Source: Armatimonadota bacterium
Lineage (GTDB): Bacteria; Vulcanimicrobiota; JACPDS01; JBDRKI01
Direction of reading: 5' to 3'
NCBI GenBank assembly: GCA_043814095.1
Contig: JBDRKI010000025.1
Coordinates: 1 to 11,081 of the forward strand
DNA length: 11,081 nt
How positions within the stretch are numbered: position 1 is the first letter of the stretch; each line of letters opens with the position of its first letter. Shown in pieces: positions 1 through 11,081 of this stretch. The position numbers and the translations under genes are program-made. The notes below the pieces were generated by a model, which saw only the letters and a program-made list of their open reading frames with translations, was not told where the DNA came from and did no database searches.

Positions 1-890
1 GCCTGAGATCTTGTAATTAAAAGCTCATCTTTTAATGTTTCAAGATACAGAGAAGAAGGATCATACTGGCATAATGCAGGTATCTGGTCCTGACCGAAAA
101 TCTTCTTGCAGATATTTTTCTTATACAATAATTTCCTTATAATAATAGTTAACGGCGTCTCTCTCCCGACAGCGCCGAAATCCGCAGAACCGTATCCTGA
201 CCATACTGCCATTATATCTTCTTTTTTATGGCCTAAGAGTCTGCCTGCGTATTCTCTGAAATGCTCTGAATAGCTCTCCCCTACAAGCCCCAGCTTTAAA
301 TTATACTTTTTTAAAGGAAGCTTCATATCTTTGGCTTTTTCAAGCACTTCTTTTGTAAAAGGCGGATAGCTTATAAGGAGGGTCTGAGAAAAAGAAGGCG
401 CAAACCTTTTCATAATATTTATTATCTCATCCTGTTTTGAACCCGGTGTTATAACAGTAATATTTTTACCGGAAAGAGCTAATGATCTCATAGCCCATGA
501 TGTCTGCTCACCGCTCACCCAGCTGCCGAGCCCTAACCCTACTATGATAAGAGTATCTTTTTTGCTTATATTATGGGCTTCTTCCAAGCCAAGCCCCAAC
601 CAGTAAGGTAGGTTCTTCTCTTCTTCGGGAAGTTTCGGCCAGTAAACAGGTTCGCTTGTTGTACCTGATGAGGAGTAAATAAAATGTTTGCCCGATAAAG
701 TGCCGTCAATGCACAGGTCTGTAAGATCATGTTTTAATATATAATCTTTCTTACTTGTTACAGGGAGTTTCTTAAAGTCATTCATATCTTTTATTCTGGG
801 AATGCGCTTGCTTTTGTTCTTTAAAAACTTCTTATATGCAGGTACCCTTTTTAATGTTGTATTATAAATATCTATAGGATTTAAGCTCAT
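1..890 (-). CDS. Phenylacetate-CoA ligase (PaaK)/F390 synthetase-like adenylate-forming enzyme, 3'-truncated by the window edge
   Basis: Not in the ORF track; translated by hand. ATG at 890-888 with GGAG 6 nt upstream (900-897), and the frame stays open to base 1 (296 codons). Translation: MSLNPIDIYNTTLKRVPAYKKF...LPVTSKKDY...YSSSGTTSEPVYWP...ISYPPF...LVGESYSE...SGYGSADFG...LITRSQ. It carries the ANL P-loop (SSGTT) and a YGxxD motif. Confidence 0.85.
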   Translation of the reverse strand, partial: MSLNPIDIYNTTLKRVPAYKKFLKNKSKRIPRIKDMNDFKKLPVTSKKDYILKHDLTDLCIDGTLSGKHFIYSSSGTTSEPVYWPKLPEEEKNLPYWLGLGLEEAHNISKKDTLIIVGLGLGSWVSGEQTSWAMRSLALSGKNITVITPGSKQDEIINIMKRFAPSFSQTLLISYPPFTKEVLEKAKDMKLPLKKYNLKLGLVGESYSEHFREYAGRLLGHKKEDIMAVWSGYGSADFGAVGRETPLTIIIRKLLYKKNICKKIFGQDQIPALCQYDPSSLYLETLKDELLITRSQ

Positions 891-902
891 TTTTTACTCC
901 CT

Positions 903-924
903 TTATATCAGTATATTGATATAA
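903..924. promoter_or_regulatory. Near-perfect palindrome (candidate operator) just upstream of the RBS of the 1-890 ligase gene
   Basis: TTATATCA-gtatat-TGATATAA at 903-924. TTTATATCA also occurs at 902-910 and 936-944. The context is AT-rich, so chance is possible. Confidence 0.4.
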
Positions 925-943
925 TTTTGACAATATTTATATC

Positions 944-971
944 ATTATACTATTATAGCATCATTTTTCAA
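944..971 (-). promoter_or_regulatory. Putative sigma70 promoter for the 1-890 ligase gene
   Basis: On the minus strand: TTGAAA (971-966), 16 bp, TATAAT (949-944). An alternative extended -10, TGCTATAAT, lies at 960-952. Confidence 0.5.
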
Positions 972-1073
972 GAAATAAGTCAATAAATACAAGAATATTC
1001 TAGCGCATTTGAGATTCCGGTCTTCGGAGTATTTTCTATAACCCCGCAGAAGGACAAGATTACAAACCTCAAC

Positions 1074-1102
1074 TTGCTTTTTGAAGCGATTAATGCTATA
1101 AT
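1074..1102 (+). promoter_or_regulatory. Putative sigma70 promoter of the fic gene
   Basis: TTGCTT (1074-1079), 17 bp, TATAAT (1097-1102), with an extended -10 TG at 1094-1095. An AGGA RBS at 1154-1157 precedes ATG 1162. Confidence 0.7.
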
Positions 1103-1143
1103 TGTATCATAATCTGAAGCGATTAATAGGCCTAATCGCTTCA
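1082..1143. promoter_or_regulatory. Operator-like repeats upstream of fic: one half-site plus a perfect inverted repeat
   Basis: TGAAGCGATTAAT occurs at 1082-1094 and 1115-1127 (33-bp spacing). TGAAGCGATTA-N7-TAATCGCTTCA forms a perfect 11-bp inverted repeat at 1115-1143. Confidence 0.7.
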
Positions 1144-1161
1144 TGAAAAAGCGAGGATAAA

Positions 1162-2298
1162 ATGAAATATATATGGCAAAGCGACCCATGGCCGGAATTA
1201 AGCTGGGATAGCGATATTCTCCTACCCTTATTAGGAAAAGCACGCCTTATACAGGGAAAATGCCTTGGCCGCATAAAACGACTCGGACTCAACCTGGACA
1301 AAGAGGCACAGGTGGATATCCTTACAGAAGAAACAATTAAAACAGCAGCAATTGAGGGAGAACGATTAAATCCTCAAACAGTACGTTCATCAGTTGCCAG
1401 ACATTTAGGTTTGGAAGAGGCAGGATTAGCTTCTTCCACCCGATTAGTGGACGGCTTAGTTGAAGTCATTTTAGATGCCACTCAGAATTATAACAGTCCT
1501 ATTTCTGCGGCCAGACTTAAAGGGTGGCATGCTGCACTTTTTCCTACAGGATATTCCGGTATTCATAAAATTCGGGTTGGCCAATGGCGCGGAAAAGGGC
1601 CAATGCGGGTAGTATCAGGACCAATAGGCAAAGAAAAAATCCATTTTGAAGCACCTCCAGAGGAAATAGTGAAATCCGAAATGCAGCATTTCTTAACCTG
1701 GTGGGGAAAAAGCCGTAAAGATACAGACGGGATTTTGCGCGCAGGCATAGCTCACCTTTATTTTGTAATTATTCATCCATTTGATGACGGTAACGGCCGT
1801 CTAGCACGCGCGTTAACAGATATGGCTCTTGCACAGGACGAAAAATCAAAAATTCGTTATTACAGTCTTTCCTCCCAAATTATGGAGGAAAGAAAAAAAT
1901 ATTATGAAATTCTTGAAGAATGCACTAATAGTAACGGCACAGATATAACCGAATGGCTTGTTTGGTTTTTAGAGTGCTTTGAACGCGCGATACAAAAATC
2001 CAATAACATTATTGGAAATGTCTTAGCTAAAGCCGAGTTTTGGCAGGAACATGCGCAGTCGGGAATTAATGAACGCCAGAAAAAAGTTTTAAACCCTATG
2101 CTGGAGGCAGGCCCCGGAGGCTTTGAGGGCGGCCTAACCACACGCAAATATGCAAGCATTGCCAAGGTCAGCCGTGCTACGGCATTTCGAGAAATATCGG
2201 AAATGATTAAGAAAAAAATCTTATACCAATTACCGGGTAAAGGGCGTAATATTCGTTATGATTTAATCTGGCCCCGGACAGATAAAAAGAAAATTTAA
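1162..2298 (+). CDS. Fic family protein with N-terminal DUF4172-like region and probable C-terminal HTH
   Basis: Canonical Fic motif HPFDDGNGRLAR (1774-1809). Inhibitory-helix-type (S/T)xxxE(G/N) motif TAAIEG (1342-1359) N-terminal to the active site. YIWQxxxWP start typical of DUF4172-Fic proteins. C-terminal TTRKYASIAKVSRATAFREI is HTH-like. Confidence 0.93.
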   Translation: MKYIWQSDPWPELSWDSDILLPLLGKARLIQGKCLGRIKRLGLNLDKEAQVDILTEETIKTAAIEGERLNPQTVRSSVARHLGLEEAGLASSTRLVDGLVEVILDATQNYNSPISAARLKGWHAALFPTGYSGIHKIRVGQWRGKGPMRVVSGPIGKEKIHFEAPPEEIVKSEMQHFLTWWGKSRKDTDGILRAGIAHLYFVIIHPFDDGNGRLARALTDMALAQDEKSKIRYYSLSSQIMEERKKYYEILEECTNSNGTDITEWLVWFLECFERAIQKSNNIIGNVLAKAEFWQEHAQSGINERQKKVLNPMLEAGPGGFEGGLTTRKYASIAKVSRATAFREISEMIKKKILYQLPGKGRNIRYDLIWPRTDKKKI

Positions 2299-2308
2299 AG
2301 CGCGACCA

Positions 2309-4936
2309 TTACTTCCTCTTATCCTCTGTAAGCCTTATTTTACCGGTTCTTTTGTTCCTGGGAATGCTCCCGGGAGGAAGAACCTCTACAGTTATAGGGG
2401 CTATCAATTTTTTTGAGAGCATTGTAGTAAGCTCTTTTGAATTAGAATATATCTTCTCTTCAAGTTTTTTTGATAAAACATTTAAATCTGCTGATGAACT
2501 TGAAGCCTCCGCTTTTATTACAAGCTGGTCTTTTCCCTTATTAAGCTCTGCCGTTAAAGAAAAGTTGGGACTTAGGCCCTTTATGTTCTCTATAGCCTCC
2601 CTTATAACTTCGGGATAAATATTCCCTCCGCCTATTATAAGGACATCATCACTTCTGCCGAGAAGTTCAAATAAAGGCCCTTTCACGCCGCAGGGACATT
2701 CTTTGTAAACCCATCTTCCCATATCTCCCACATCATATCTTATTACCGGTTGGAGGCGTCTGTTAAGGTTTGTAACTATAATTTTACCTTCTTCTCCCTT
2801 TTTTACGGGTTTTAAAGTTTGGGAATTTAATATCTCAACATACTGCAGTTTACTGTTAATATGATGCAGACCCCCTGAAAGATGCCTGCACTGGTATCCT
2901 ATGGCACCTACATCATTCGTTGCATAACCTATTGATGCTATTCTTTCTGAGGAGAATACTTTTTTAATATAATTAAGGTTTTCCTTGAATATATGCTCTC
3001 CCCCGCTTAATATCTTGGGTATCTTAATCTTAACTTTTTTTTCTTTGGCAAGAGAAGCTATGGACATAAGCACTGACGGTATAGCCAAGACCGCATCGGG
3101 CTTAAACATAACAAGATAATTTAATATCTCTTCTGCTTCTATATTCCCGCCTATAGGCAGGTTAATGCATCCTGCTTTCTCAATGGCTTTTGAGAAGCTT
3201 AAAAATGAACCCCACATATTACCGGCAAATAAAAGATTGGCAACCGTATCTCCTTTATCTAGCGCGGCTGACAAGAGCCCTTTTGCAAGAAACCCGGCAT
3301 TATAGTCCTGCTCTTCTACGGTTCGGAACACAAACTTAGGATCACCTGTCGTACCACCACTTGTAAATACATACCCGTTAGGCTGGGTCTGTGTAAGAGC
3401 ATCTGTGTTTTTAGGAGGCAGGTTTTTCTTTAACTCGTCAGGAGCTGTTAAAGGAACTTTCTCCCACCATGAATTATTACTTTCTTCTGTTTTTATATTA
3501 TCAAATTTAACATTTTTAAATTTCTTTTTGTAAAAAGGAGAGTTTTGTTTTGCAAACAAAACTAATTCCTTTAAACTATCCTTAACAATTTCTTCTTTAT
3601 CACCTGTTAAAGACACCCATTTTACAAGCTGCTCTAAGGAGTATACACCGTCATGGGGAACACCGTGAACACGGCTTGTCATCTTCCCTATGGAGGTAAA
3701 TCTATCAGCCCCTGTAAAGGCAAAAAGGTCAGCTACTTTCTTTCTTTTTTCCTCATCCGCGGCAATTGATACGGTCTGTATATACCTGCCCATATCTTTT
3801 AATATATCAGGCACTTTAAAAAGATTATCAACTTCTTTTACAAATAAGGTACGGTTAAGGCACGATATGGTAAAACCTTCTTCTTTTTCTAATATTACCG
3901 ACCAGCTTTCATTGCCTTTACCGAATAAATATTCGGCCTCATCATGCGCTTTTGCTGCTTTAGCGAGCTGTCTTACCTTTTTTATCTCAACTTTCTCATC
4001 AATACTTAATTTTTTCTGAGGCAGAACCTTATTTATCTTTTTAAAAACTTCCGCGATAAGTTCTGCAAGCTTTTCTGCGTTTTTAAACTTGACCTTCCCT
4101 TTTTCAACATATACAACATGAGGCGATGCGCATGCACTCTGTTCCCATCTTGATACATCAAGAGCTATCCCGTATGCAATATCTTTTTTATCAAAAAATT
4201 CTTTTGCAACAAGGGCTAAGCTGTATTTAGGCCCATATTCTATAAGGCGTGTATAAACACCTAAATCTTTCCTGTAACTTTCTACCGCTTCTTTACCTCC
4301 GTAAACAACTACCGCATCAGCGTTTTTCTTAACAAGAGTCTCTGTTTCTTTATCTGCGCTTTTCCATGAAATAACACTGAAAGAAGATGATAATATGCCT
4401 TCTGTATCAGCTTCTTGTAAGCTCTCACAGAAAAGAAGCGGGAAAACCGGATCATCAGAGGACATCTTAAGGATATTAACATTTTTGGTTATAAAGCCCT
4501 GGGTAAGGCTGTCTAGGGGGCCTACAAATACATTCCCCGCGCCTATATGAATAACAACTCCCCTAGGTTCTGCTCTGGTATAACCTGAAAGCTTACTACA
4601 GTAGCTCCAGGAGTTAAGAATATCCATATTGCCAAGCTCACATGCAATTCTTTTTTCAAGATTCTCGCGTTTTAGAAGATCAACTAAAAAATCAATCTCT
4701 TCTTCTATCATTTTTTCATGAAAACCGGTAAGAGCAGGCATTAACTTTAAAGCTTTCCTGCGCAGGTGATAATTTTTATCCTCCCATAGATAAGATACTT
4801 TATCCAGAATATTAATTATCTTCTCAACAGGATAATTTCTTACCCTTTTTCTTTTTTTTTCGGCTTCTTTTAAAACTTTATTTATAGATACTTTAGATAC
4901 ATTATCTATAAATTTACCGAATATGTATGATCTCAT
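2309..4936 (-). CDS. Fusion of an N-terminal LuxC-like acyl-CoA/acyl-protein reductase and a C-terminal PaaK-like adenylate-forming ligase (about 875 aa)
   Basis: N half (4936 to ~3608): PRGVVIHIGAGNV, LKMSS, YGGKEAV, YGPKYS, catalytic-type Cys in EQSACASPH (codon 4132-4130), and PHDG. C half: NSPFY, P-loop TSGGTTGDPK (3364-3335), GYATNDVG, RYDVGD and LGRSDD. Start placed at ATG 4936 because the track's GTG at 4945 lies within the RBS AAGGTGA. Confidence 0.88.
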   Translation of the reverse strand: MRSYIFGKFIDNVSKVSINKVLKEAEKKRKRVRNYPVEKIINILDKVSYLWEDKNYHLRRKALKLMPALTGFHEKMIEEEIDFLVDLLKRENLEKRIACELGNMDILNSWSYCSKLSGYTRAEPRGVVIHIGAGNVFVGPLDSLTQGFITKNVNILKMSSDDPVFPLLFCESLQEADTEGILSSSFSVISWKSADKETETLVKKNADAVVVYGGKEAVESYRKDLGVYTRLIEYGPKYSLALVAKEFFDKKDIAYGIALDVSRWEQSACASPHVVYVEKGKVKFKNAEKLAELIAEVFKKINKVLPQKKLSIDEKVEIKKVRQLAKAAKAHDEAEYLFGKGNESWSVILEKEEGFTISCLNRTLFVKEVDNLFKVPDILKDMGRYIQTVSIAADEEKRKKVADLFAFTGADRFTSIGKMTSRVHGVPHDGVYSLEQLVKWVSLTGDKEEIVKDSLKELVLFAKQNSPFYKKKFKNVKFDNIKTEESNNSWWEKVPLTAPDELKKNLPPKNTDALTQTQPNGYVFTSGGTTGDPKFVFRTVEEQDYNAGFLAKGLLSAALDKGDTVANLLFAGNMWGSFLSFSKAIEKAGCINLPIGGNIEAEEILNYLVMFKPDAVLAIPSVLMSIASLAKEKKVKIKIPKILSGGEHIFKENLNYIKKVFSSERIASIGYATNDVGAIGYQCRHLSGGLHHINSKLQYVEILNSQTLKPVKKGEEGKIIVTNLNRRLQPVIRYDVGDMGRWVYKECPCGVKGPLFELLGRSDDVLIIGGGNIYPEVIREAIENIKGLSPNFSLTAELNKGKDQLVIKAEASSSSADLNVLSKKLEEKIYSNSKELTTMLSKKLIAPITVEVLPPGSIPRNKRTGKIRLTEDKRK

Positions 4937-4949
4937 AATAATCACCTTT

Positions 4950-6155
4950 CTACAAATCTGAGAAACCCTTAATCCTGTATATCAGAAAAGAACAGAGAAT
5001 AATGCTTGCACCCGATATAATAAATATATTCTGTACTGATACAAAATCAGCGGCTGCCCCTATAAACCCGTACGCTATGGGCTGCATTGAAAAAACAAGC
5101 GAATTTATAATGGAAAATACCCTGCCCCTTATATCGTCCGGTACCGCCCTCTGAAACATTACTATAAGGTATATGTTTAAAAGACCCAAGGAACTCCCGA
5201 ATACAAAAAGGGAGATGCTCCCCTGTATAAGATTGCCGGCAAAGGCAAGAAAAATATAGCCCAACCCCATTACAAATATGGTTAATGAAACAAGCAATGC
5301 TTTCTTTTTAATCTCCGAAAAAACCGCAGCGTATAAAGTAGCTGCAAACATACCGGCATAAACCATTGAATTTAAAATACCGAAAGCCCCTGCTTCTGCT
5401 TTCAAAACAGTTTTAGTAAATACCGGTAAGAGCACCAGTATTGAAGCCGTAAAGAAATTAACCACCCCGAAAAAGAGCAGCATCTTCCCGAACACGCTGT
5501 TAACACAGAGGTATTTTATCCCCTCTTTTATATCCTTAAATAAATTCTTCTCTTTTGTCCGTACTGTATGCTTCGGGATTGAGAGTAAAACTAAAAATAC
5601 GGTAGATACTAAAAACGAACCAGCATTAATGGTAAACGCGAAAGGAACACCGGATACGGCTATAAGCACCCCTCCTAAGAAGAATCCTAAAAAACCGGAT
5701 AAAGTTGTGCTTACCTGCATTAAAGAGTTTGCGGGAGCAAGCTCTTTATCTTCAACAAAATTGGGTATAGATGATAAAAGAGCAGGATTAAAAAACGTAT
5801 TAAATATAGAGGCTATTACGGTTGTTACATAAAGCCAGATGGGGGTTAAAGTTTCCTGGTATGCAAGATATGCCACAAAACCTATTACAATAAACCTGCC
5901 TATATCGGCTATTATCATAATCTTTCTTCTGTCATACCTGTCTATAAAAGAACCAGCTATAGGGCTTAATAAAACAGCAGGTAAAGAGACACATATAAGG
6001 CCTATACCTGTATCAAGAGCAGAACCAGTGTAATTATAAAGGAACCACAGAAAAGCGATAGTATGTATCCTGTCGCCTATCTGTGATACCACCTGGCCTG
6101 CCCATAACAGAAAAAAATTCTTATTTTTAAATAATTTCAAAACCTGATTATCCAT
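4950..6155 (-). CDS. MFS transporter, DHA3/MefA-EntS-like efflux type (about 401 aa)
   Basis: About 12 hydrophobic segments; NFFLLWAGQVVSQIGD, MFS motif A GSFIDRYDRRKIM, and VPDDIRGRVFS. Start placed at ATG 6155 (GGAG at 6170-6167; TAATG overlap with the luxE-like stop) rather than 6188. Confidence 0.92.
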   Translation of the reverse strand: MDNQVLKLFKNKNFFLLWAGQVVSQIGDRIHTIAFLWFLYNYTGSALDTGIGLICVSLPAVLLSPIAGSFIDRYDRRKIMIIADIGRFIVIGFVAYLAYQETLTPIWLYVTTVIASIFNTFFNPALLSSIPNFVEDKELAPANSLMQVSTTLSGFLGFFLGGVLIAVSGVPFAFTINAGSFLVSTVFLVLLSIPKHTVRTKEKNLFKDIKEGIKYLCVNSVFGKMLLFFGVVNFFTASILVLLPVFTKTVLKAEAGAFGILNSMVYAGMFAATLYAAVFSEIKKKALLVSLTIFVMGLGYIFLAFAGNLIQGSISLFVFGSSLGLLNIYLIVMFQRAVPDDIRGRVFSIINSLVFSMQPIAYGFIGAAADFVSVQNIFIISGASIILCSFLIYRIKGFSDL

Positions 6156-7267
6156 TATTTTAAATACTCCGATGCCGTAAGAGCGCACCCTTTATAAAGG
6201 GTTGTTCCCGCGCGTCTTAAGATTGTAAAATACGGCCTCTTTATACCACACTTACATTTACTCTTAGATATATAACCCAGATCTGATGATAAAATATTAA
6301 ATGACGGCATGCTCCTTATATAAGGTGTTATAAACTGGAGAAGCCCTTCACTCCCATTAGGCATTATCTTTTCCGTAAGGGGATCCCTTACAAGTATCTT
6401 TGAGTAAACAAGCTCATGAAAATTGCCTTCGGGACATGATATATATGGAACACCGTGTTCTACCATACCGAATACATCCCTTATCCTGCTTTCAGGGATA
6501 CAGAAAAAGGAAGATAAAAGATTCCTGTATTCATCTTTAAGTATGGCATCCCCAGTATGGAGCTTCCATCCTCCCCCGTTTATTACAAGACTCTCGGGAT
6601 GCAAGGGAAGCTTTTTATGTTTTTCCATAAGCTTTCTTACGGTAAAATACGTAAAAGACGGGAACCCTATAATTCTTACAGGTTCACCGCTTTCCGCAGC
6701 TTTCTTAAGATAATCTCCTGCCTCATTTATATCAAATGTAAAATCCTCACCTTTTTTACGTTTTCTTAATGCGTAATATCTATCTATTGCAGGAGCAAAA
6801 ACAGAATACATGTAATGGGCATAAGCTGCGCCCCTGCCCTTGCTCTGGTCATAATCATAAGTAAACATTACATAATGTGCTTTTTTATCTGATACAAGGC
6901 CCAAAGAACGCATACTCTGCTGCCTCATGAAATTATGCCTGTACATAGATAGTTTATCCCACATTATCCTGCTTACAGTTCCCTTTGTACCGCTTGAAGC
7001 AAGCTCAAAGATTATATTCTTCTCCGGAACCGATAAAAGTTTATACTGTTTTAATACATCAACAAAAATATAAGGGATATTTACAATATCTTTTTCTTTT
7101 TTTATCTTAGACGGATTAAAGTTATTCTGATTGCATAAATTTCTATAAAAAGGACTGTTATTATAATGAAAATTAACTGTTTCTTTTATACTCTCGAGAA
7201 ACAGCCTATCCGTTTTTTCATTTTTTAAAAAAACATCTTCTCTATTGAAAATAAGTTCGGTACTCAT
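6155..7267 (-). CDS. LuxE-like acyl-protein synthetase
   Basis: SSGTKG P-loop, IIGFP, GGGWK, RIRDVFGMVEH and SSDLG, plus C-terminal RAG...KGCA with Cys361 (codon 6187-6185) at the position expected for the LuxE acylated cysteine. Its 370-aa length matches LuxE. No symbol is given because there is no luxAB context. Confidence 0.9.
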   Translation of the reverse strand: MSTELIFNREDVFLKNEKTDRLFLESIKETVNFHYNNSPFYRNLCNQNNFNPSKIKKEKDIVNIPYIFVDVLKQYKLLSVPEKNIIFELASSGTKGTVSRIMWDKLSMYRHNFMRQQSMRSLGLVSDKKAHYVMFTYDYDQSKGRGAAYAHYMYSVFAPAIDRYYALRKRKKGEDFTFDINEAGDYLKKAAESGEPVRIIGFPSFTYFTVRKLMEKHKKLPLHPESLVINGGGWKLHTGDAILKDEYRNLLSSFFCIPESRIRDVFGMVEHGVPYISCPEGNFHELVYSKILVRDPLTEKIMPNGSEGLLQFITPYIRSMPSFNILSSDLGYISKSKCKCGIKRPYFTILRRAGTTLYKGCALTASEYLK

Positions 7268-7269
7268 TA

Positions 7270-8337
7270 TTATACCCCGGCCTTTTCCTCAAGAGCTTTT
7301 TCTAAAGATACAGTTTTATTTGATTCTGCCTTCTCATACTCGCTTTTTATATAATCAAAAAGCTTCCCCGCAAAATCAGAATAAAGGTTTATGCGCGAGA
7401 AATCTATTTTCTGTGAGACAATATACTGCAAACGCAGGGCATCCGTACCTCTTAAAAAATTAGGTATAACCCCTATAAAGAAAAAGCCTAAGCTTTCAAA
7501 AAACTTACAGTATGAAGGAGTAAGCAGGTCATTTAACGGAAGATCAAGGTGAATTGTATCTATCTCTTTAGATAAAATCTCCTCTACTGTCCTTTTAAAT
7601 ACATCTTTAGAGTCTTTCCCGTACTTGAAAATACCTATCCATGAACATGCCCATTTAGGGGATATACGGTAATTAAAATCGGTATTTTCAGAAAGTGAAC
7701 CTTCAGCTTCCGATATGAATACTCTGTCTGTCTTTAGATTAGAATATATCTTCTCTATAATCTTATAATGATCTTCGGGAAGATATACCTTATGTATATT
7801 ATCATCCTTTAGATGCTTAAAAAATACAATTATTGTCTCTCTCTGGGGATATTTATCCTCACCGGGTATATTGGTAAAGGTAAGTCCCGGAGGGACATAT
7901 CCTAAATCTATACAGCATTCCCTTGAACCGAACTCATAATTAACTCTCTGGCTGTAGGTATGAGTAGTAACAGGAGCACTGTAAAGACCGGCAAGGCCCA
8001 TAGATGAAGCTTTCTTCTCAAGCAGGACTCTCATCCTTTTCATAAGCCCCCGCTTCCTGTGAAGAGGATCAACAGCAGCCTGGCCCAGCTCCCCTAATCT
8101 TGATTCAACATTCTCTATGATTATGCAGTAATGGCCTACAACTTCCCCGTCTTTTGTCTTGGCGACTACAGATACCATCTCACCTGTTTTATTAAGATGA
8201 GCTATCCTTCTAGGCTCATACACCTCATGGGTAGGATAGTTCCTGCCATAGGTACGGAGCATACAGTTAGTAACCCCGGGAGCATCAGAAGGTGTCATTA
8301 TTTCTACTATATATTCTTCCTTATTTAAAGAATTCAT
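7270..8337 (-). CDS. GNAT-family acyltransferase, probably with a second degenerate GNAT-like domain
   Basis: GEVVGH strand and acyl-CoA-binding motif ELGQAAVDPLHRKRGL in the N half; a GNAT-like C-terminal FESLGFFFIG. AGGAG at 8355-8351. Confidence 0.8.
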   Translation of the reverse strand: MNSLNKEEYIVEIMTPSDAPGVTNCMLRTYGRNYPTHEVYEPRRIAHLNKTGEMVSVVAKTKDGEVVGHYCIIIENVESRLGELGQAAVDPLHRKRGLMKRMRVLLEKKASSMGLAGLYSAPVTTHTYSQRVNYEFGSRECCIDLGYVPPGLTFTNIPGEDKYPQRETIIVFFKHLKDDNIHKVYLPEDHYKIIEKIYSNLKTDRVFISEAEGSLSENTDFNYRISPKWACSWIGIFKYGKDSKDVFKRTVEEILSKEIDTIHLDLPLNDLLTPSYCKFFESLGFFFIGVIPNFLRGTDALRLQYIVSQKIDFSRINLYSDFAGKLFDYIKSEYEKAESNKTVSLEKALEEKAGV

Positions 8338-8382
8338 ATTTTATTTAATTCTCCTAATATTATATATATTTAAACCTGCTCA

Positions 8383-8411
8383 AATATATATTATTAATAT
8401 ATAAATTGCAA
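8383..8411 (-). promoter_or_regulatory. Putative sigma70 promoter of the GNAT-luxE-MFS-luxC operon
   Basis: On the minus strand: TTGCAA (8411-8406), 17 bp, TATATT (8388-8383), within the 102-bp AT-rich gap. It is overlapped by an AT-only inverted repeat (8362-8371/8382-8391). Confidence 0.5.
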
Positions 8412-8439
8412 GTTATAAATAAGTGATAAAAATAAAAAT

Positions 8440-11081
8440 TTAAGTAATATAGTTGTTTTTAAAGAAATTAAACCCTAATATCTTACCTTCTCTTTTCAAC
8501 TCTTCCCATTTTTTAAGAAGCTCCATAAGATCTTTTTTGTTTTTAAGGCGGAATATTTTAGGCAATTCAGTCAGCTCTCTCCTTATGCTTTTTACGCTGT
8601 TAGATGTTTTCATCTTTTCCATGAATATTTTTTCCGCAAGAGCTTTTATATTGGTTTCAAATAATTCTACATACCCATCCGGATTTTTAGATAACTTATC
8701 GAGCAACTCAACCCGCATAGGAGACAAAGGAAACCGTTTTCTCATTATACCAAGACGGACCTTGCCTTTATCCAACAGCTCTTTATACTTATCTAGCAAA
8801 TCTTTTAATCCGTCCGCATTAAATCTTTCCTCAAGCACGGTTAATTCATGTCTGACAGTTGTTTCACTCCCGCTTGTCCTCATGCCCTTTTTATCCTCTC
8901 CCAGCAATTTAGCCACAATAGCTACATAATCATTATCTATCAACTTTTTGTATTCCTCAAAATTTTCGGAAAGTTTTTCCAATATCTCAACCTGCATAGG
9001 AGTTAAAGGAATCTGAGTTCTAATTACACCAAGATTAACCTCGTTTTTATCAACAAGCTCTTTATACTTACCAAGCAAATCATCTAAACTATCCGCATTA
9101 AATCTGCTTTTAATTATACATAATTTTATCTGTATATTTTCTTTACTTTTTGTCGTTTTAATTTTTCCCTCGAACATTTTTTTTGCAAGATCCTTATAAT
9201 TTACATTATCAAACAACTCTCTATATTCCCCGGTATTTTTGACAAGTTCCTCCAGTATCTCAGTTTGCAACGGCCCTAGAGGAAGGGATCTTCTCAACAT
9301 GCCTAAATTAAGTTCATCTCCATTAACCAATCCTTTATATTTGCCCAATAAATCATCCAGGTTGCTTGAGTTAAATATGTCTTTAAGGCTGACTAATTCA
9401 TTCCTCACGGTGTTTTTGCTGTTTGTTGTCCTCATGCCATCAGTAATTAATTTTTCCACAAGGGCAGTATATTTTGCATGACTAAACAGAGCTCTGTATT
9501 TTTTGGGATTCCCAGATAATTTTTCCAGTATTTCAACTTGTACGGAATTCAAACAAACCTGTCTTTTCATCTTTCCTAAATCAACCTCTCCCCTATCTAC
9601 CAGTTCTTTATGCTTACCAAGCAAATCATCTAAACTATCTGCATTAAACCTGCTTTTAAGAATAGCCAGTTCATTTCGTATTGTCCCCTCACTATCCGTA
9701 GTTTTCATTTTTTCTCTAAGAAGTTTCTGCGCCATAACAGTATAATTTAAGTTATCAAACAAGCTCCTGTATGCTTCAGTGTTTTCTGCAAGTTTCTCTA
9801 GCATCTCAATCTCGACAGATCCTAAAGGAATTCTGGTTTTTATTACACCTAGATTAACTTCTCCTTTATTAACAAAGTCTCTATACTTGTCCAATAAATC
9901 ATCCAGACTATTCACATTAAGTTTATTTTTAAGGTCAACTAACTCACTACGAATACTCCATTTACTGTTTATGGTTTTCATATCTTCCTCGGCCAGTTTT
10001 CCGGCAACAACTTTATAACCCTCATCATCAAATATTTCTCTATATTTCTCAGCATTCTTGGCAAGTTTATCCAGTATCTCAACTTGTGCAGAAGAAAAAG
10101 GCATTCGCATTCTCATTACACCTAGATTAACTTGATCTTTATGAACAAGTTCTTCATATCTGCCGATTAATTCAACTAAATTTTCCGTATTAAACCTGTT
10201 TTTAAGGCTAAGTAATTCATTACGGAGGCTCTCTTCACTGCCTGAGGTTATCATTTTTTCCTGTAGCAGCTTTCTCGCAAGAGTAGTCATATTTGCTTCA
10301 AATAAATACCTGTATTCTTCCGGCTTTTCAGAAAGCTTCTCAAGCATCTCAACCTGTACAGAAGTTAAAGGAAGCTGTTTTTTTAAGTATCTGGCAGGAA
10401 GCCTGCCCTTTTCCTTAAACATTTTCCAGTCCTTAACTATATCAAACAGATCATTTGTTCTAAAAATTTTAAATAAATCTAAAAAATTATTCTTTAAAGT
10501 TCCTACAGATGTTTTTATATTGTAGCCATTATTAAGATCACCAGTTATTATTCTGGAAATATCTGTAACCTGCATACCTTTAAATCTATCTGTACCAAAC
10601 TTTTCCAGAATATCTAAAATATAATACATTAACGGTTTTTTAGGAATCTTGTAAAAACGGCCTGTACTCTGATATGCCTGCCATGATTTCCTTATATCCT
10701 TTATCTTCTTTAATTTCAGCTTTTTCATTATTCCTTTAAGCCTGCCAACTATAACCTCAGCATCATATCCGCTAATGTTCTCTATTAATCTAGGAAAAGG
10801 GGCATACTCTCCGCCTTCTATTCTTAATTCAATCTTGCCTTCGGCAAAAACATCTTGAAGAAGCTCTATTTCAATCTCATCCAACGTAATCTCCTGGGGC
10901 TCAAATTCCCTCGGATGTTCTAATAGCCAGCTGGAGGCAGGGCTCATAGGAACAGGATTAGCAGGTGGTGCCGCATTACCGCTCATTGCCATATTAACAG
11001 GAGTTACAGGCCTAGAAGCTGCATCCATCACAGGAACAGACAATCCCTCGACAGTTACAGGCCTTGGAATAATACCCAGAC
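8440..11081 (-). CDS. Large tandem-repeat protein (at least ~860 aa) of ~91-aa units resembling LuxR/GerE-type HTH domains; 5' end probably outside the window
   Basis: The frame is open from the stop at 8442-8440 to the window edge (LGIIPRPVTVEG precedes the track's TTG at 11043). A Pro-rich linker is followed by 2 degenerate and 7 clear repeat units. Confidence 0.85.
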   Translation of the reverse strand, partial: LGIIPRPVTVEGLSVPVMDAASRPVTPVNMAMSGNAAPPANPVPMSPASSWLLEHPREFEPQEITLDEIEIELLQDVFAEGKIELRIEGGEYAPFPRLIENISGYDAEVIVGRLKGIMKKLKLKKIKDIRKSWQAYQSTGRFYKIPKKPLMYYILDILEKFGTDRFKGMQVTDISRIITGDLNNGYNIKTSVGTLKNNFLDLFKIFRTNDLFDIVKDWKMFKEKGRLPARYLKKQLPLTSVQVEMLEKLSEKPEEYRYLFEANMTTLARKLLQEKMITSGSEESLRNELLSLKNRFNTENLVELIGRYEELVHKDQVNLGVMRMRMPFSSAQVEILDKLAKNAEKYREIFDDEGYKVVAGKLAEEDMKTINSKWSIRSELVDLKNKLNVNSLDDLLDKYRDFVNKGEVNLGVIKTRIPLGSVEIEMLEKLAENTEAYRSLFDNLNYTVMAQKLLREKMKTTDSEGTIRNELAILKSRFNADSLDDLLGKHKELVDRGEVDLGKMKRQVCLNSVQVEILEKLSGNPKKYRALFSHAKYTALVEKLITDGMRTTNSKNTVRNELVSLKDIFNSSNLDDLLGKYKGLVNGDELNLGMLRRSLPLGPLQTEILEELVKNTGEYRELFDNVNYKDLAKKMFEGKIKTTKSKENIQIKLCIIKSRFNADSLDDLLGKYKELVDKNEVNLGVIRTQIPLTPMQVEILEKLSENFEEYKKLIDNDYVAIVAKLLGEDKKGMRTSGSETTVRHELTVLEERFNADGLKDLLDKYKELLDKGKVRLGIMRKRFPLSPMRVELLDKLSKNPDGYVELFETNIKALAEKIFMEKMKTSNSVKSIRRELTELPKIFRLKNKKDLMELLKKWEELKREGKILGFNFFKNNYIT
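8443..10377 (-). repeat. Seven intragenic tandem units with a 270-279 bp period (90, 91, 91, 91, 91, 93 aa; last unit 98 aa to the stop)
   Basis: Units start on the minus strand at 10377, 10107, 9834, 9561, 9288, 9015 and 8736. Consensus PLxxxQVEILEKL..N...YRxLF....Y..xAxKL....MxT..Sxx(T/S)(I/V)RNEL..LKxRFN..(S/N)LDDLLxKYxELVxxxEVNLG. Two diverged units start near 10893 and 10641. Confidence 0.95.

Follow-up and report, generated by a model that had tools for sequence, protein, structure and literature searches.

Eight, perhaps nine, LuxR/GerE-like helix-turn-helix units arranged head to tail in an orphan bacterial protein

LuxR-type helix-turn-helix (HTH) domains are among the commonest DNA-binding modules of bacteria, and they gain affinity by dimerising. 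The preliminary description of the locus reported here held that such domains normally occur once per chain and that no characterised protein with many of them in series was known. The first statement was borne out by the PDB sequences that match a LuxR profile, 0/59 of which had more than one matched stretch (a matching "CAP repeat" chain, 8vd6, was rejected as a de novo designed repeat protein). The second is consistent with this survey and with our literature searches, in which no paper was found describing a chain with tandem or multiple GerE or LuxR HTH domains.

Zinc-finger arrays are polymeric nucleic-acid readers. HTH-type domains stand in series in the OST-HTH/LOTUS proteins TDRD5, TDRD7, and Limkain b1 (PMC2848206), and sigma factors have been described as four HTH repeats (PMC4581349). 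In the cited portions of both sources, several HTH-type domains follow one another in one chain, as they do here, but they are of another HTH subtype within eukaryotic RNP proteins, or are heterogeneous sigma domains, and not LuxR-type units. TALE, Bat, and MOrTL repeats, as the cited portions of PMC4787788 and PMC4066763 present them, resemble the present array in concept only, having serial units with a few variable positions that face the nucleic acid; their fold is unrelated, their units are ~33 aa long compared to ~91 aa here, and the identity between units of our array is far lower.

The window, by which we mean the whole stretch of DNA analysed, comprises 11,081 nucleotides of contig JBDRKI010000025.1 from an Armatimonadota bacterium. 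The array is encoded on the minus strand at one end of the window, in an open reading frame whose 5' end is open. Its features are as follows.

8440-11079, minus strand: ORF encoding 879 aa, closed by a stop at 8440-8442, from translation; runs into the window edge
10903..11079, minus strand: Pro/Ala/Val-rich low-complexity linker, aa 1-59, upstream of the array, from translation; also ends P0002 (see below)
10636..10902, minus strand: unit -1, marginal ninth unit, aa 60-148; 3.2 bits against the 8-unit HMM
10372..10635, minus strand: unit 0, diverged but clear, aa 149-236; 14.3 bits with an HMM built without unit 0
10102..10371, minus strand: unit 1, aa 237-326; 132.4 bits
9829..10101, minus strand: unit 2, aa 327-417; 135.9 bits
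9556..9828, minus strand: unit 3, aa 418-508; 139.0 bits; query of the structure-neighbour search
9646..9693, minus strand: putative recognition helix of unit 3, aa 463-478, SEGTIRNELAILKSRF, an example for all units; aligned to LuxR and DeoR helices
9283..9555, minus strand: unit 4, aa 509-599; 133.5 bits
9010..9282, minus strand: unit 5, aa 600-690; 134.9 bits
8731..9009, minus strand: unit 6, aa 691-783; 126.2 bits
8443..8730, minus strand: unit 7, the last, with a divergent C-terminal tail, aa 784-879; 109.6 bits

Seven units of ~91 aa and two diverged ones had been proposed. The seven stood, as an HMM built from them recovers every one at 110-139 bits and a length of 90-96 aa. One of the diverged units, unit 0, is clear, with aa 174-232 aligned to the HMM of units 1-7 (conditional E 2.3e-6) and 17% identity to unit 1. 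The other, unit -1, proved only marginal: its score is reached by 4/200 shuffles and its identity to unit 1 is 13%, with helices 3-4 in register. An array of eight, perhaps nine, head-to-tail units is thereby confirmed. A 273-nt period is also visible in the DNA, as two families (D1 and D2) with five copies each and a spacing of 270-279 nt or 546 nt. Tandem Repeats Finder did not detect the array, an expected outcome because the units are too diverged. Four plus-strand antisense ORFs inside the array had no Pfam match, and we rejected them as genes, considering them shadows of the repeat.

Identity between units ranges over 37-57% at the amino acid level and 48-68% at the nucleotide level. Since dN/dS is 0.16-0.66 in 15/21 unit pairs, and synonymous sites are near saturation (fully saturated in the remaining 6/21 pairs), the protein sequence of the array is under selection.

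The reading frame meets no stop before the window edge, so the ORF encodes the C-terminal portion of a longer chain. The last 46 residues of P0002, an open record of 1,474 aa, are identical to the first 46 of the array ORF; the end of P0002 is formed by a Pro/Gly-rich stretch followed by the Pro/Ala/Val-rich linker residues common to both. Because the frame is open and this protein-level overlap exists, the full protein is most likely at least 2,300 aa long, with the array as its C-terminal third. The earlier placement of the array "in one protein" therefore holds in that a single ORF carries it, but this ORF is probably only the last third of the chain. P0002 is built of repeats too, with four copies of a ~200-aa module. 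No enzymatic or regulatory domain was found in this rest of the protein, nor was a receiver, autoinducer-binding, ligand-binding, or other sensor domain found anywhere in the giant protein.

The giant protein is an orphan, known from one sequence. An exhaustive search of 1.84 billion representative proteins with the unit profile gave the array protein itself as the sole match, and the 879-aa query against a word-indexed collection gave only P0002, through the overlap. With P0002 as the query, matches were limited to P0002 itself and the overlapping array protein, and tblastn against phage and plasmid records gave no match. Across 80 genome loci with the neighbouring operon, 0/80 encode a relative of the array part or the P0002 part. 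As no search returned a relative, neither conservation across genomes nor context is available to guide the interpretation. A crude GerE HMM made from 8 sequences detected no regulator of the LuxR type at these 80 loci, a result from which we draw no conclusion. Neither tRNAs nor Rfam families were found within the window. The LuxC::PaaK protein of the window falls outside all phylum groups, on a long branch (1.26).

To what fold the units belong was addressed with hhalign, using the 8-unit profile as the query and the HTH domains of 18 E. coli K-12 LuxR-family proteins as the reference profile. The two profiles aligned with a score of 21.0 (E 9.2e-4, Sum_probs 34.9) over 53 columns across helices 1-4. 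This local score was reached by 0/150 column shuffles (null 9.2 +/- 1.8, maximum 17.0), and neither did any of the 150 reach the global score of 16.4 (null 3.4 +/- 2.1). The match was reproduced in further runs, with 0/60 in a second shuffle test. Counting against it, the hhalign probability is just 22%, and the array scores only 7.8 bits with a plain HMM built from these 18 LuxR domains. The match was weaker with a shallower LuxR profile of 8 sequences, whose local score was reached by 12/200 shuffles and whose global score by 1/200. The alignment to the 18 domains contains gaps of 9 and 7 residues, in agreement with the extra residues that had been noticed by eye, ~10 of them behind helix 1 and ~7 in the turn. 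A likeness to either GerE or sigma region 4 had been envisaged; the LuxR side is the one that held, as sigma-70 region 4 scored 7.9 against the units, a value reached by 40/60 shuffles. In a control, the LuxR profile matched sigma region 4 with 96% probability.

Curated models did not recognise the units. GerE (PF00196) in Pfam matched neither the full 879-aa sequence (E up to 0.1) nor any one of its 9 units (E up to 10), and no other Pfam HTH family matched a unit at E up to 10, save a sub-threshold local HrcA match. NCBIfam and the PDB sequences gave no HTH match to any unit. Sub-threshold matches of the array to TBD, HrcA, phrog_13007, and PglX (Pfam, NCBIfam, PHROGs, PADLOC) were rejected as noise. 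Among PDB sequences the unit profile reached E 0.013 at best, with matches to designed helical repeats, to myosin light chains, and to a Rab GTPase.

A second line of evidence comes from structure neighbours in the ESM Atlas. With unit 3 (aa 418-508) as the query, 9/10 neighbouring clusters were at least 98% PF00196 GerE, and the tenth was Response_reg. TM by query was 0.52-0.56, with 61-71 residues aligned over 418-495/505, and TM by row was 0.63 for a 76-aa GerE-only cluster; the underlying structure is an ESMFold model of low whole-protein confidence (pLDDT 0.57, pTM 0.22), and a TM of ~0.55 on ~60 residues is weak alone. A three-unit query gave GerE families in 3/10 rows (TM 0.22-0.35). 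The profile alignment and the Atlas neighbours are independent of each other, and together they support a predicted LuxR/GerE-like tetrahelical HTH fold for the units. The LuxR/GerE reading of the preliminary description gained profile and predicted-structure support, but a match to any curated model was not obtained.

It could instead be that the units are not HTHs and form a continuous alpha-helical solenoid, the LuxR and DeoR likeness being convergent helix patterning. The missing HTH match in Pfam and PDB sequence searches and the low confidence of the Atlas model fit this idea, and the best PDB match of the unit profile is to a designed helical repeat (8eox_D, 8ga9_A, E 0.013-0.029) over helix 1 and the insertion. 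We consider it quite improbable, given that the LuxR alignment follows the four helices one after another with a score above every shuffle, that the unit 3 neighbours are almost all GerE, and that two separate HTH families, LuxR and DeoR, select one helix.

As in the LuxR/GerE/NarL-FixJ HTH (PF00196), the units have four predicted helices in matching order, the HTH is formed from helices 2 and 3, and the recognition helix still opens with S-x-x-T-[IV]-[KR]. In contrast to that family, the units fall below every curated threshold, carry the 9-aa and 7-aa insertions, have Glu at the equivalent of NarL His190, and number eight or nine per chain, with no sensor domain found.

The DeoR profile aligned to the units over 16 columns with a score of 20.5, which 0/60 shuffles reach. 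The LuxR and DeoR profiles pick out one common segment, in accordance with the earlier placement of the recognition helix, and the weak Pfam HrcA_DNA-bdg match (aa 462-476) overlaps this putative helix in unit 3. The winged HTHs of the DeoR family (E. coli SrlR, YgbI, DeoR, FucR, AgaR, UlaR, GlpR) share the recognition motif S-x-x-T-I-R-x-[DE]-L-x-x-L with the units, to the point that AgaR has TIRNDL where units have TIRNEL. The likeness does not extend further: the global hhalign score is 5.5, alignment confidence is near zero outside the recognition helix, and in the units a fourth helix takes the place of the DeoR wing. The family gave no Pfam match to the units either, and the Atlas neighbours are GerE rather than winged helices.

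Within helix 3 of units 1-7, Ser is conserved in 7/7, Ser/Thr at +3 in 6/7, and Arg at +5 in 6/7, together with I/V/L at +4, L at +8, and F/L at +15. In the cited portion of PMC10853779, the DNA-contacting residues of the NarL recognition helix (numbering taken from L084) are Lys188, which makes base contacts, Val189, Lys192, and His190, which contacts the backbone. The conserved Arg at +5 is the equivalent of Lys188. The His190 equivalent is Glu in 6/7 units, and the equivalents of Val189 and Lys192 vary among units, the latter never being basic. These two positions are among the most variable columns of helix 3 (51, 55, 58, 59, and 62), which hold 5-6 different residues in 7 units and lie on one helix face. 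Variation is not confined to helix 3, as segment identities are 33-57% and pN/pS is 0.40-0.75 across the whole unit.

Charge is segregated within the units. Summed over units 1-7, net charge is +8 in helix 2, +4 in the turn, +7 in helix 3, and +12 in the linker, compared to -9 in helix 1, -8 in the insertion, and -7 in helix 4. Units 1-3 are acidic overall (net -1 to -2, pI ~5.5), while E. coli LuxR domains range from +1 to +8. The three acidic units, the Glu at His190, and the lack of a basic residue at Lys192 argue against the canonical LuxR binding mode.

From the charge segregation and the motif conservation we infer nucleic-acid binding, and the earlier proposal that the array might read or wrap a long DNA site has the same basis. 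A binding mode and a tethering role are proposed in addition. Our preferred reading, to which we give about an even chance, is that the C-terminal ~730 aa form eight (perhaps nine) LuxR/GerE-type four-helix HTHs that would bind double-stranded nucleic acid, most likely DNA. Compared to LuxR, every unit has 9 additional residues behind helix 1 and 7 in the turn, and a short basic linker comes after it. Helix 3 would serve as the recognition helix of every unit and be placed in a groove, with the basic linkers tracking the nucleic-acid backbone. Binding would be multivalent, so that the chain may span one long site or link several sites, to which it would tether the large repeat region of the N-terminal part.

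HTH-derived domains can also mediate protein-protein contacts. The units may accordingly be HTH-derived without binding nucleic acid, acting as a protein-protein platform or a flexible beads-on-a-string spacer in a giant structural or scaffolding protein, a reading that we regard as somewhat unlikely. The acidic units 1-3 and the residues at the His190 and Lys192 equivalents speak for it, and the remainder of the protein, with its four ~200-aa modules and no enzymatic, regulatory, ligand-binding, or receiver domain found, looks more like a structural protein than a transcription factor. However, the basic charge is gathered in helices 2 and 3, the turn, and the linkers, apart from the acidic helix 1, insertion, and helix 4, and helix 3 keeps its exposed polar S, S/T, and R at a between-unit identity of only 37-57%. 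HTHs of the DeoR family, which binds DNA, are also acidic at the matching T-I-R-x-D-L position.

The ligand of a nucleic-acid-binding array might also be RNA rather than DNA, as has been predicted for the tandem OST-HTH/LOTUS domains of eukaryotic RNP-organising proteins. The charge pattern of the units is equally compatible with both, and the cited portion of PMC2848206 predicts RNA binding for the tandem winged-HTH repeats of TDRD5, TDRD7, and Limkain b1. Yet both the structure search and the profile comparison put the units closest to LuxR/GerE domains, whose ligand is double-stranded DNA, and neither an RNA-binding domain nor an RNA family turned up in the vicinity, making RNA a very improbable target in our estimation.

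Under DNA binding, a stricter version would have the array work as a TALE- or zinc-finger-like reader. Each unit would read its own subsite via helix-3 columns 51, 55, 58, 59, and 62, the conserved Ser/Thr/Arg would grip the backbone together with the basic linkers, and one long composite site, specified by the eight or nine units, would anchor the protein of at least 2,300 aa. We judge this version clearly unlikely.

The importance of the array is limited in that a single sequence represents it and its reading of DNA is a prediction. A natural chain with eight or nine LuxR-type modules would be a new architectural solution, and the case suggests that sequence may drift from every curated model while the fold stays detectable. 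If DNA binding is true, very long sites might be recognised or coated by the array, which might also bridge DNA or fasten a giant scaffold to the chromosome, and it would also be a possible modular scaffold for engineered DNA recognition. TALE-like modular reading, if true, would be a previously unknown route to long-site DNA specificity in bacteria.

The array gene is a real gene carrying a real array. An HMM built from seven units cut by hand was used to score the copies, and the tandem array of 7–9 units proposed in the preliminary description was borne out, with seven well-kept copies, a diverged eighth, and a marginal ninth.

Array open reading frame and its units (aa positions are those of the 879-aa translation)
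8440-11079, minus strand: array ORF, 879 aa plus stop, with no stop in frame before the window edge
~aa 60-148, minus strand: unit -1 (ninth, marginal), 3.2 bits with an 8-unit HMM, equalled by 4 of 200 shuffles
aa 149-236, minus strand: unit 0 (eighth, diverged), 14.3 bits with the 7-unit HMM, conditional E 2.3e-6
aa 237-326, minus strand: unit 1, 110-139 bits with the 7-unit HMM, the range shared by units 2 to 7
aa 327-417, minus strand: unit 2
aa 418-508, minus strand: unit 3
aa 509-599, minus strand: unit 4
aa 600-690, minus strand: unit 5
aa 691-783, minus strand: unit 6
aa 784-879, minus strand: unit 7

The DNA itself shows a 273-nt period, with families D1 and D2 recurring at spacings of 270–279 nt or 546 nt; the period is absent from the Tandem Repeats Finder output. 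Units share 37–57% of residues and 48–68% of bases. Synonymous differences between them are near saturation (pS 0.43–0.88; saturated in 6 of 21 pairs), and dN/dS is 0.16–0.66 in the remaining 15 pairs, which together indicate old duplications and a protein sequence maintained by selection. Antisense ORFs inside the array had no family match. Units 0 and -1 (window 10372-10902, minus strand) are the most basic units, at net +6 and +2, and unit -1 contains the Lys-rich stretch KGIMKKLKLKKIKDI. This stretch is also the array's best single local match to a plain LuxR HMM, at the helix 3–4 junction (conditional E 0.024–0.032).

Curated families offered little help in naming the units. Neither the whole protein nor any of its nine units matched GerE or another HTH family in Pfam, even at E <= 10, the sole exception being a local, sub-threshold alignment of aa 462-476 to the HrcA winged-HTH recognition helix (E 0.0063), and searches of NCBIfam and PDB sequences with the array returned nothing relevant. 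The unit profile was also compared with LuxR-family HTH domains taken from annotated E. coli K-12 genes. Against a first set of 8 domains the similarity was weak, the local score being reached by 12 of 200 column shuffles and the global score by 1 of 200. Against 18 domains, hhalign aligned 53 columns across four helices (score 21.0, E 9.2e-4, probability 22%), a score reached by none of 150 shuffles (null 9.2 ± 1.8, maximum 17.0); the global score of 16.4 was likewise reached by 0 of 150, and a second hhalign run gave the same outcome. The alignment requires insertions of 9 residues after helix 1 and 7 in the turn, in agreement with the extra ~10 and ~7 residues noted previously.

Profile comparisons of the units with HTH families, and controls
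Units against 18 LuxR domains: score 21.0; 53 columns, helices 1-4; reached by 0 of 60 shuffles
Units against 7 E. coli DeoR-family N-termini: score 20.5; 16 columns, recognition helix only; reached by 0 of 60 shuffles
Units against 6 sigma-70 region 4 sequences: score 7.9; reached by 40 of 60 shuffles; no similarity
Control, LuxR against sigma region 4: 96% probability
Control, LuxR against DeoR: 76% probability

The DeoR match corresponds to the motif S-x-x-T-I-R-x-[DE]-L-x-x-L, and no confident alignment extends beyond the recognition helix. The units showed no likeness to sigma-70 region 4, although the LuxR profile itself matches that region. Structural neighbours were sought with the ESM Atlas's own ESMFold model of the array protein, a model of low overall confidence (pLDDT 0.57). 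When only unit 3 was queried, nine of ten rows were clusters at least 98% assigned to PF00196 GerE, and the tenth was a response-regulator family; in this low-confidence model, TM by query was 0.52–0.56 over 61–71 aligned residues, and a 76-aa GerE-only cluster reached 0.63 normalised on the cluster. A three-unit query placed GerE families in 3 of 10 rows, with low TM. A rival reading, in which the units form a non-HTH solenoid, has the silence of Pfam in its favour, and is opposed by the four-helix alignment and the GerE neighbours of unit 3. We read the units as HTH domains whose four helices are arranged as in LuxR and whose recognition-helix sequence is closest to the DeoR style; in fold they are LuxR-like, and by curated threshold they lie outside PF00196. 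The LuxR/GerE-like fold proposed at the outset is thus supported at moderate strength.

The architecture of the array is unusual. When the 18-domain LuxR profile was searched against the PDB, 59 distinct sequences were found at E <= 0.001, none of which had more than one matched LuxR stretch; two matches had no single passing stretch, one of them a de novo designed repeat protein. Phrase searches of a paper library for chains with several GerE, LuxR, or HTH domains, whether described as tandem, multiple, or repeated, yielded no account of a multi-GerE chain, in line with the earlier statement that no characterised protein with this architecture was known. Arrays of other HTH types are known: OST-HTH/LOTUS repeats in TDRD5, TDRD7, and Limkain b1 (PMC2848206), and sigma factors, which are reported to be four HTH repeats (PMC4581349). 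TALE-like repeats (PMC4787788, PMC4066763) are a conceptual analogue for polymeric DNA reading, with a fold unrelated to the units. In the three-unit Atlas query, the first row was a 195-aa Actinomycetota cluster, 100% GerE, with 105 residues aligned. A single domain would not account for so long an alignment, so LuxR proteins with two HTHs may occur in nature; this cluster may be one, in which case it would be the nearest natural architecture to the array.

The array is known from a single sequence without relatives and is part of a still larger protein. The unit profile, searched against all 1.84 billion representative proteins, matched only the array protein itself, and no similar sequence turned up in phage and plasmid records. 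In a word-indexed search, the sole database match to the 879-aa translation was P0002, a 1,474-aa record open across its entire 4,423-nt contig; searched in turn, P0002 found only the array part, via their overlap. The first 46 residues of the window ORF are identical to the last 46 of P0002, so in all likelihood the array makes up the C-terminal third of a protein of 2,300 aa or more, a join that rests on this overlap. The preliminary description placed all units in one protein, and one ORF does hold them, although that protein extends beyond the window. P0002 contains four copies of a ~200-aa module (roughly aa 140-340, 395-600, 785-1000, and 1150-1365; Smith-Waterman z 12–64 against shuffles) and, after them, a linker rich in Pro and Gly; it had no match in Pfam, NCBIfam, or PDB sequences.

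Genes beside the giant gene (Pfam/NCBIfam assignments)
7270-8337, minus strand: GNAT acetyltransferase, first of four same-strand genes downstream of the giant gene
6155-7267, minus strand: LuxE acyl-protein synthetase
4950-6188, minus strand: MFS transporter
2309-4945, minus strand: LuxC::PaaK fusion
1162-2298, plus strand: Fic/DUF4172 gene
Left window edge: PaaK-like gene, running off the edge

LuxC::PaaK has 84 relatives at E <= 0.001, with a best identity of 58%, then 47% to Hippea alviniae. Among 80 genome loci from many phyla carrying such relatives, GNAT was present in 58, LuxE in 73, MFS in 46, and the PaaK-like gene in 52, and none carried a relative of either giant-protein part. In twelve loci laid out, GNAT was usually the first operon gene and the genes upstream of it varied. 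The giant gene therefore lies next to a widespread operon and does not belong to it. This operon consists of GNAT, MFS, PaaK-like, LuxC, LuxE, and LuxC::PaaK genes, parts of which occur in 46–73 of the 80 loci; its version in the window (3-8337, minus strand) has a rearranged gene order and is missing the stand-alone LuxC found in relatives. In a 72-row tree the window's LuxC::PaaK falls outside all phylum groups, on a long branch of 1.26 changes per column, and its best identity of 49% means that the source organism is distant from every species representative searched. The Fic/DUF4172 gene is interposed among the LuxC/LuxE/PaaK genes on the opposite strand, and its product hits both a defence model, PADLOC SoFic (4.4e-44), and a phage family, phrog_5978 (4.6e-63). 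A 26-nt inverted repeat (936-961 and 1093-1118; 81% complementary, arms 131 nt apart) lies between the PaaK-like and Fic genes. The AT-rich, 102-nt spacer between the giant-gene stop and the GNAT start (8338-8439) has GGAG directly 5' of the GNAT ATG, and on the minus strand it shows two weak matches to promoters; it contains no terminator-like site.

Net charge summed over units 1–7 is segregated, with helix 2 (+8), the turn (+4), helix 3 (+7), and the inter-unit linker (+12) basic, and helix 1 (-9), the insertion (-8), and helix 4 (-7) acidic. Helix 3, the putative recognition helix, is amphipathic, with conserved hydrophobic alignment columns 53, 57, 60, and 64 and a conserved polar set of Ser 49 (7/7 units), Ser/Thr 52 (6/7), and Arg 54 (6/7). 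Columns 51, 55, 58, 59, and 62 form one face of the helix and hold 5–6 different residues among the 7 units. By alignment, Arg 54, column 55, and column 58 are equivalent to NarL Lys188, Val189, and Lys192, and column 56 to His190; PMC10853779 gives the first three as NarL's three base-contacting residues and His190 as a backbone contact. The charge segregation, polar set, variable face, and NarL equivalences are consistent with a helix that faces DNA and whose specificity residues would change between units. Other features count against DNA binding, and a rival reading of the array as a protein-interaction scaffold without nucleic-acid binding draws on the first three: 6 of the 7 units have Glu in column 56, none of units 1–7 has a basic residue in column 58, units 1–3 have a pI of ~5.5 compared with charges of +1 to +8 for E. 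coli LuxR domains, and variation extends beyond helix 3 (segment identities 33–57%, pN/pS 0.40–0.75). The DeoR family binds DNA, and its E. coli HTH sequences have Asp at the column-56 position; an acidic residue there is thus compatible with binding. RNA is a less likely rival ligand: the charge pattern suits either nucleic acid, and the LuxR/GerE domains nearest to the units bind double-stranded DNA. DNA binding by the array is a plausible prediction from evidence that is indirect. On the favoured reading, the array would act as a multivalent nucleic-acid binder, most likely of DNA, and would anchor the N-terminal repeats of the giant protein to a long site or a repeated one.
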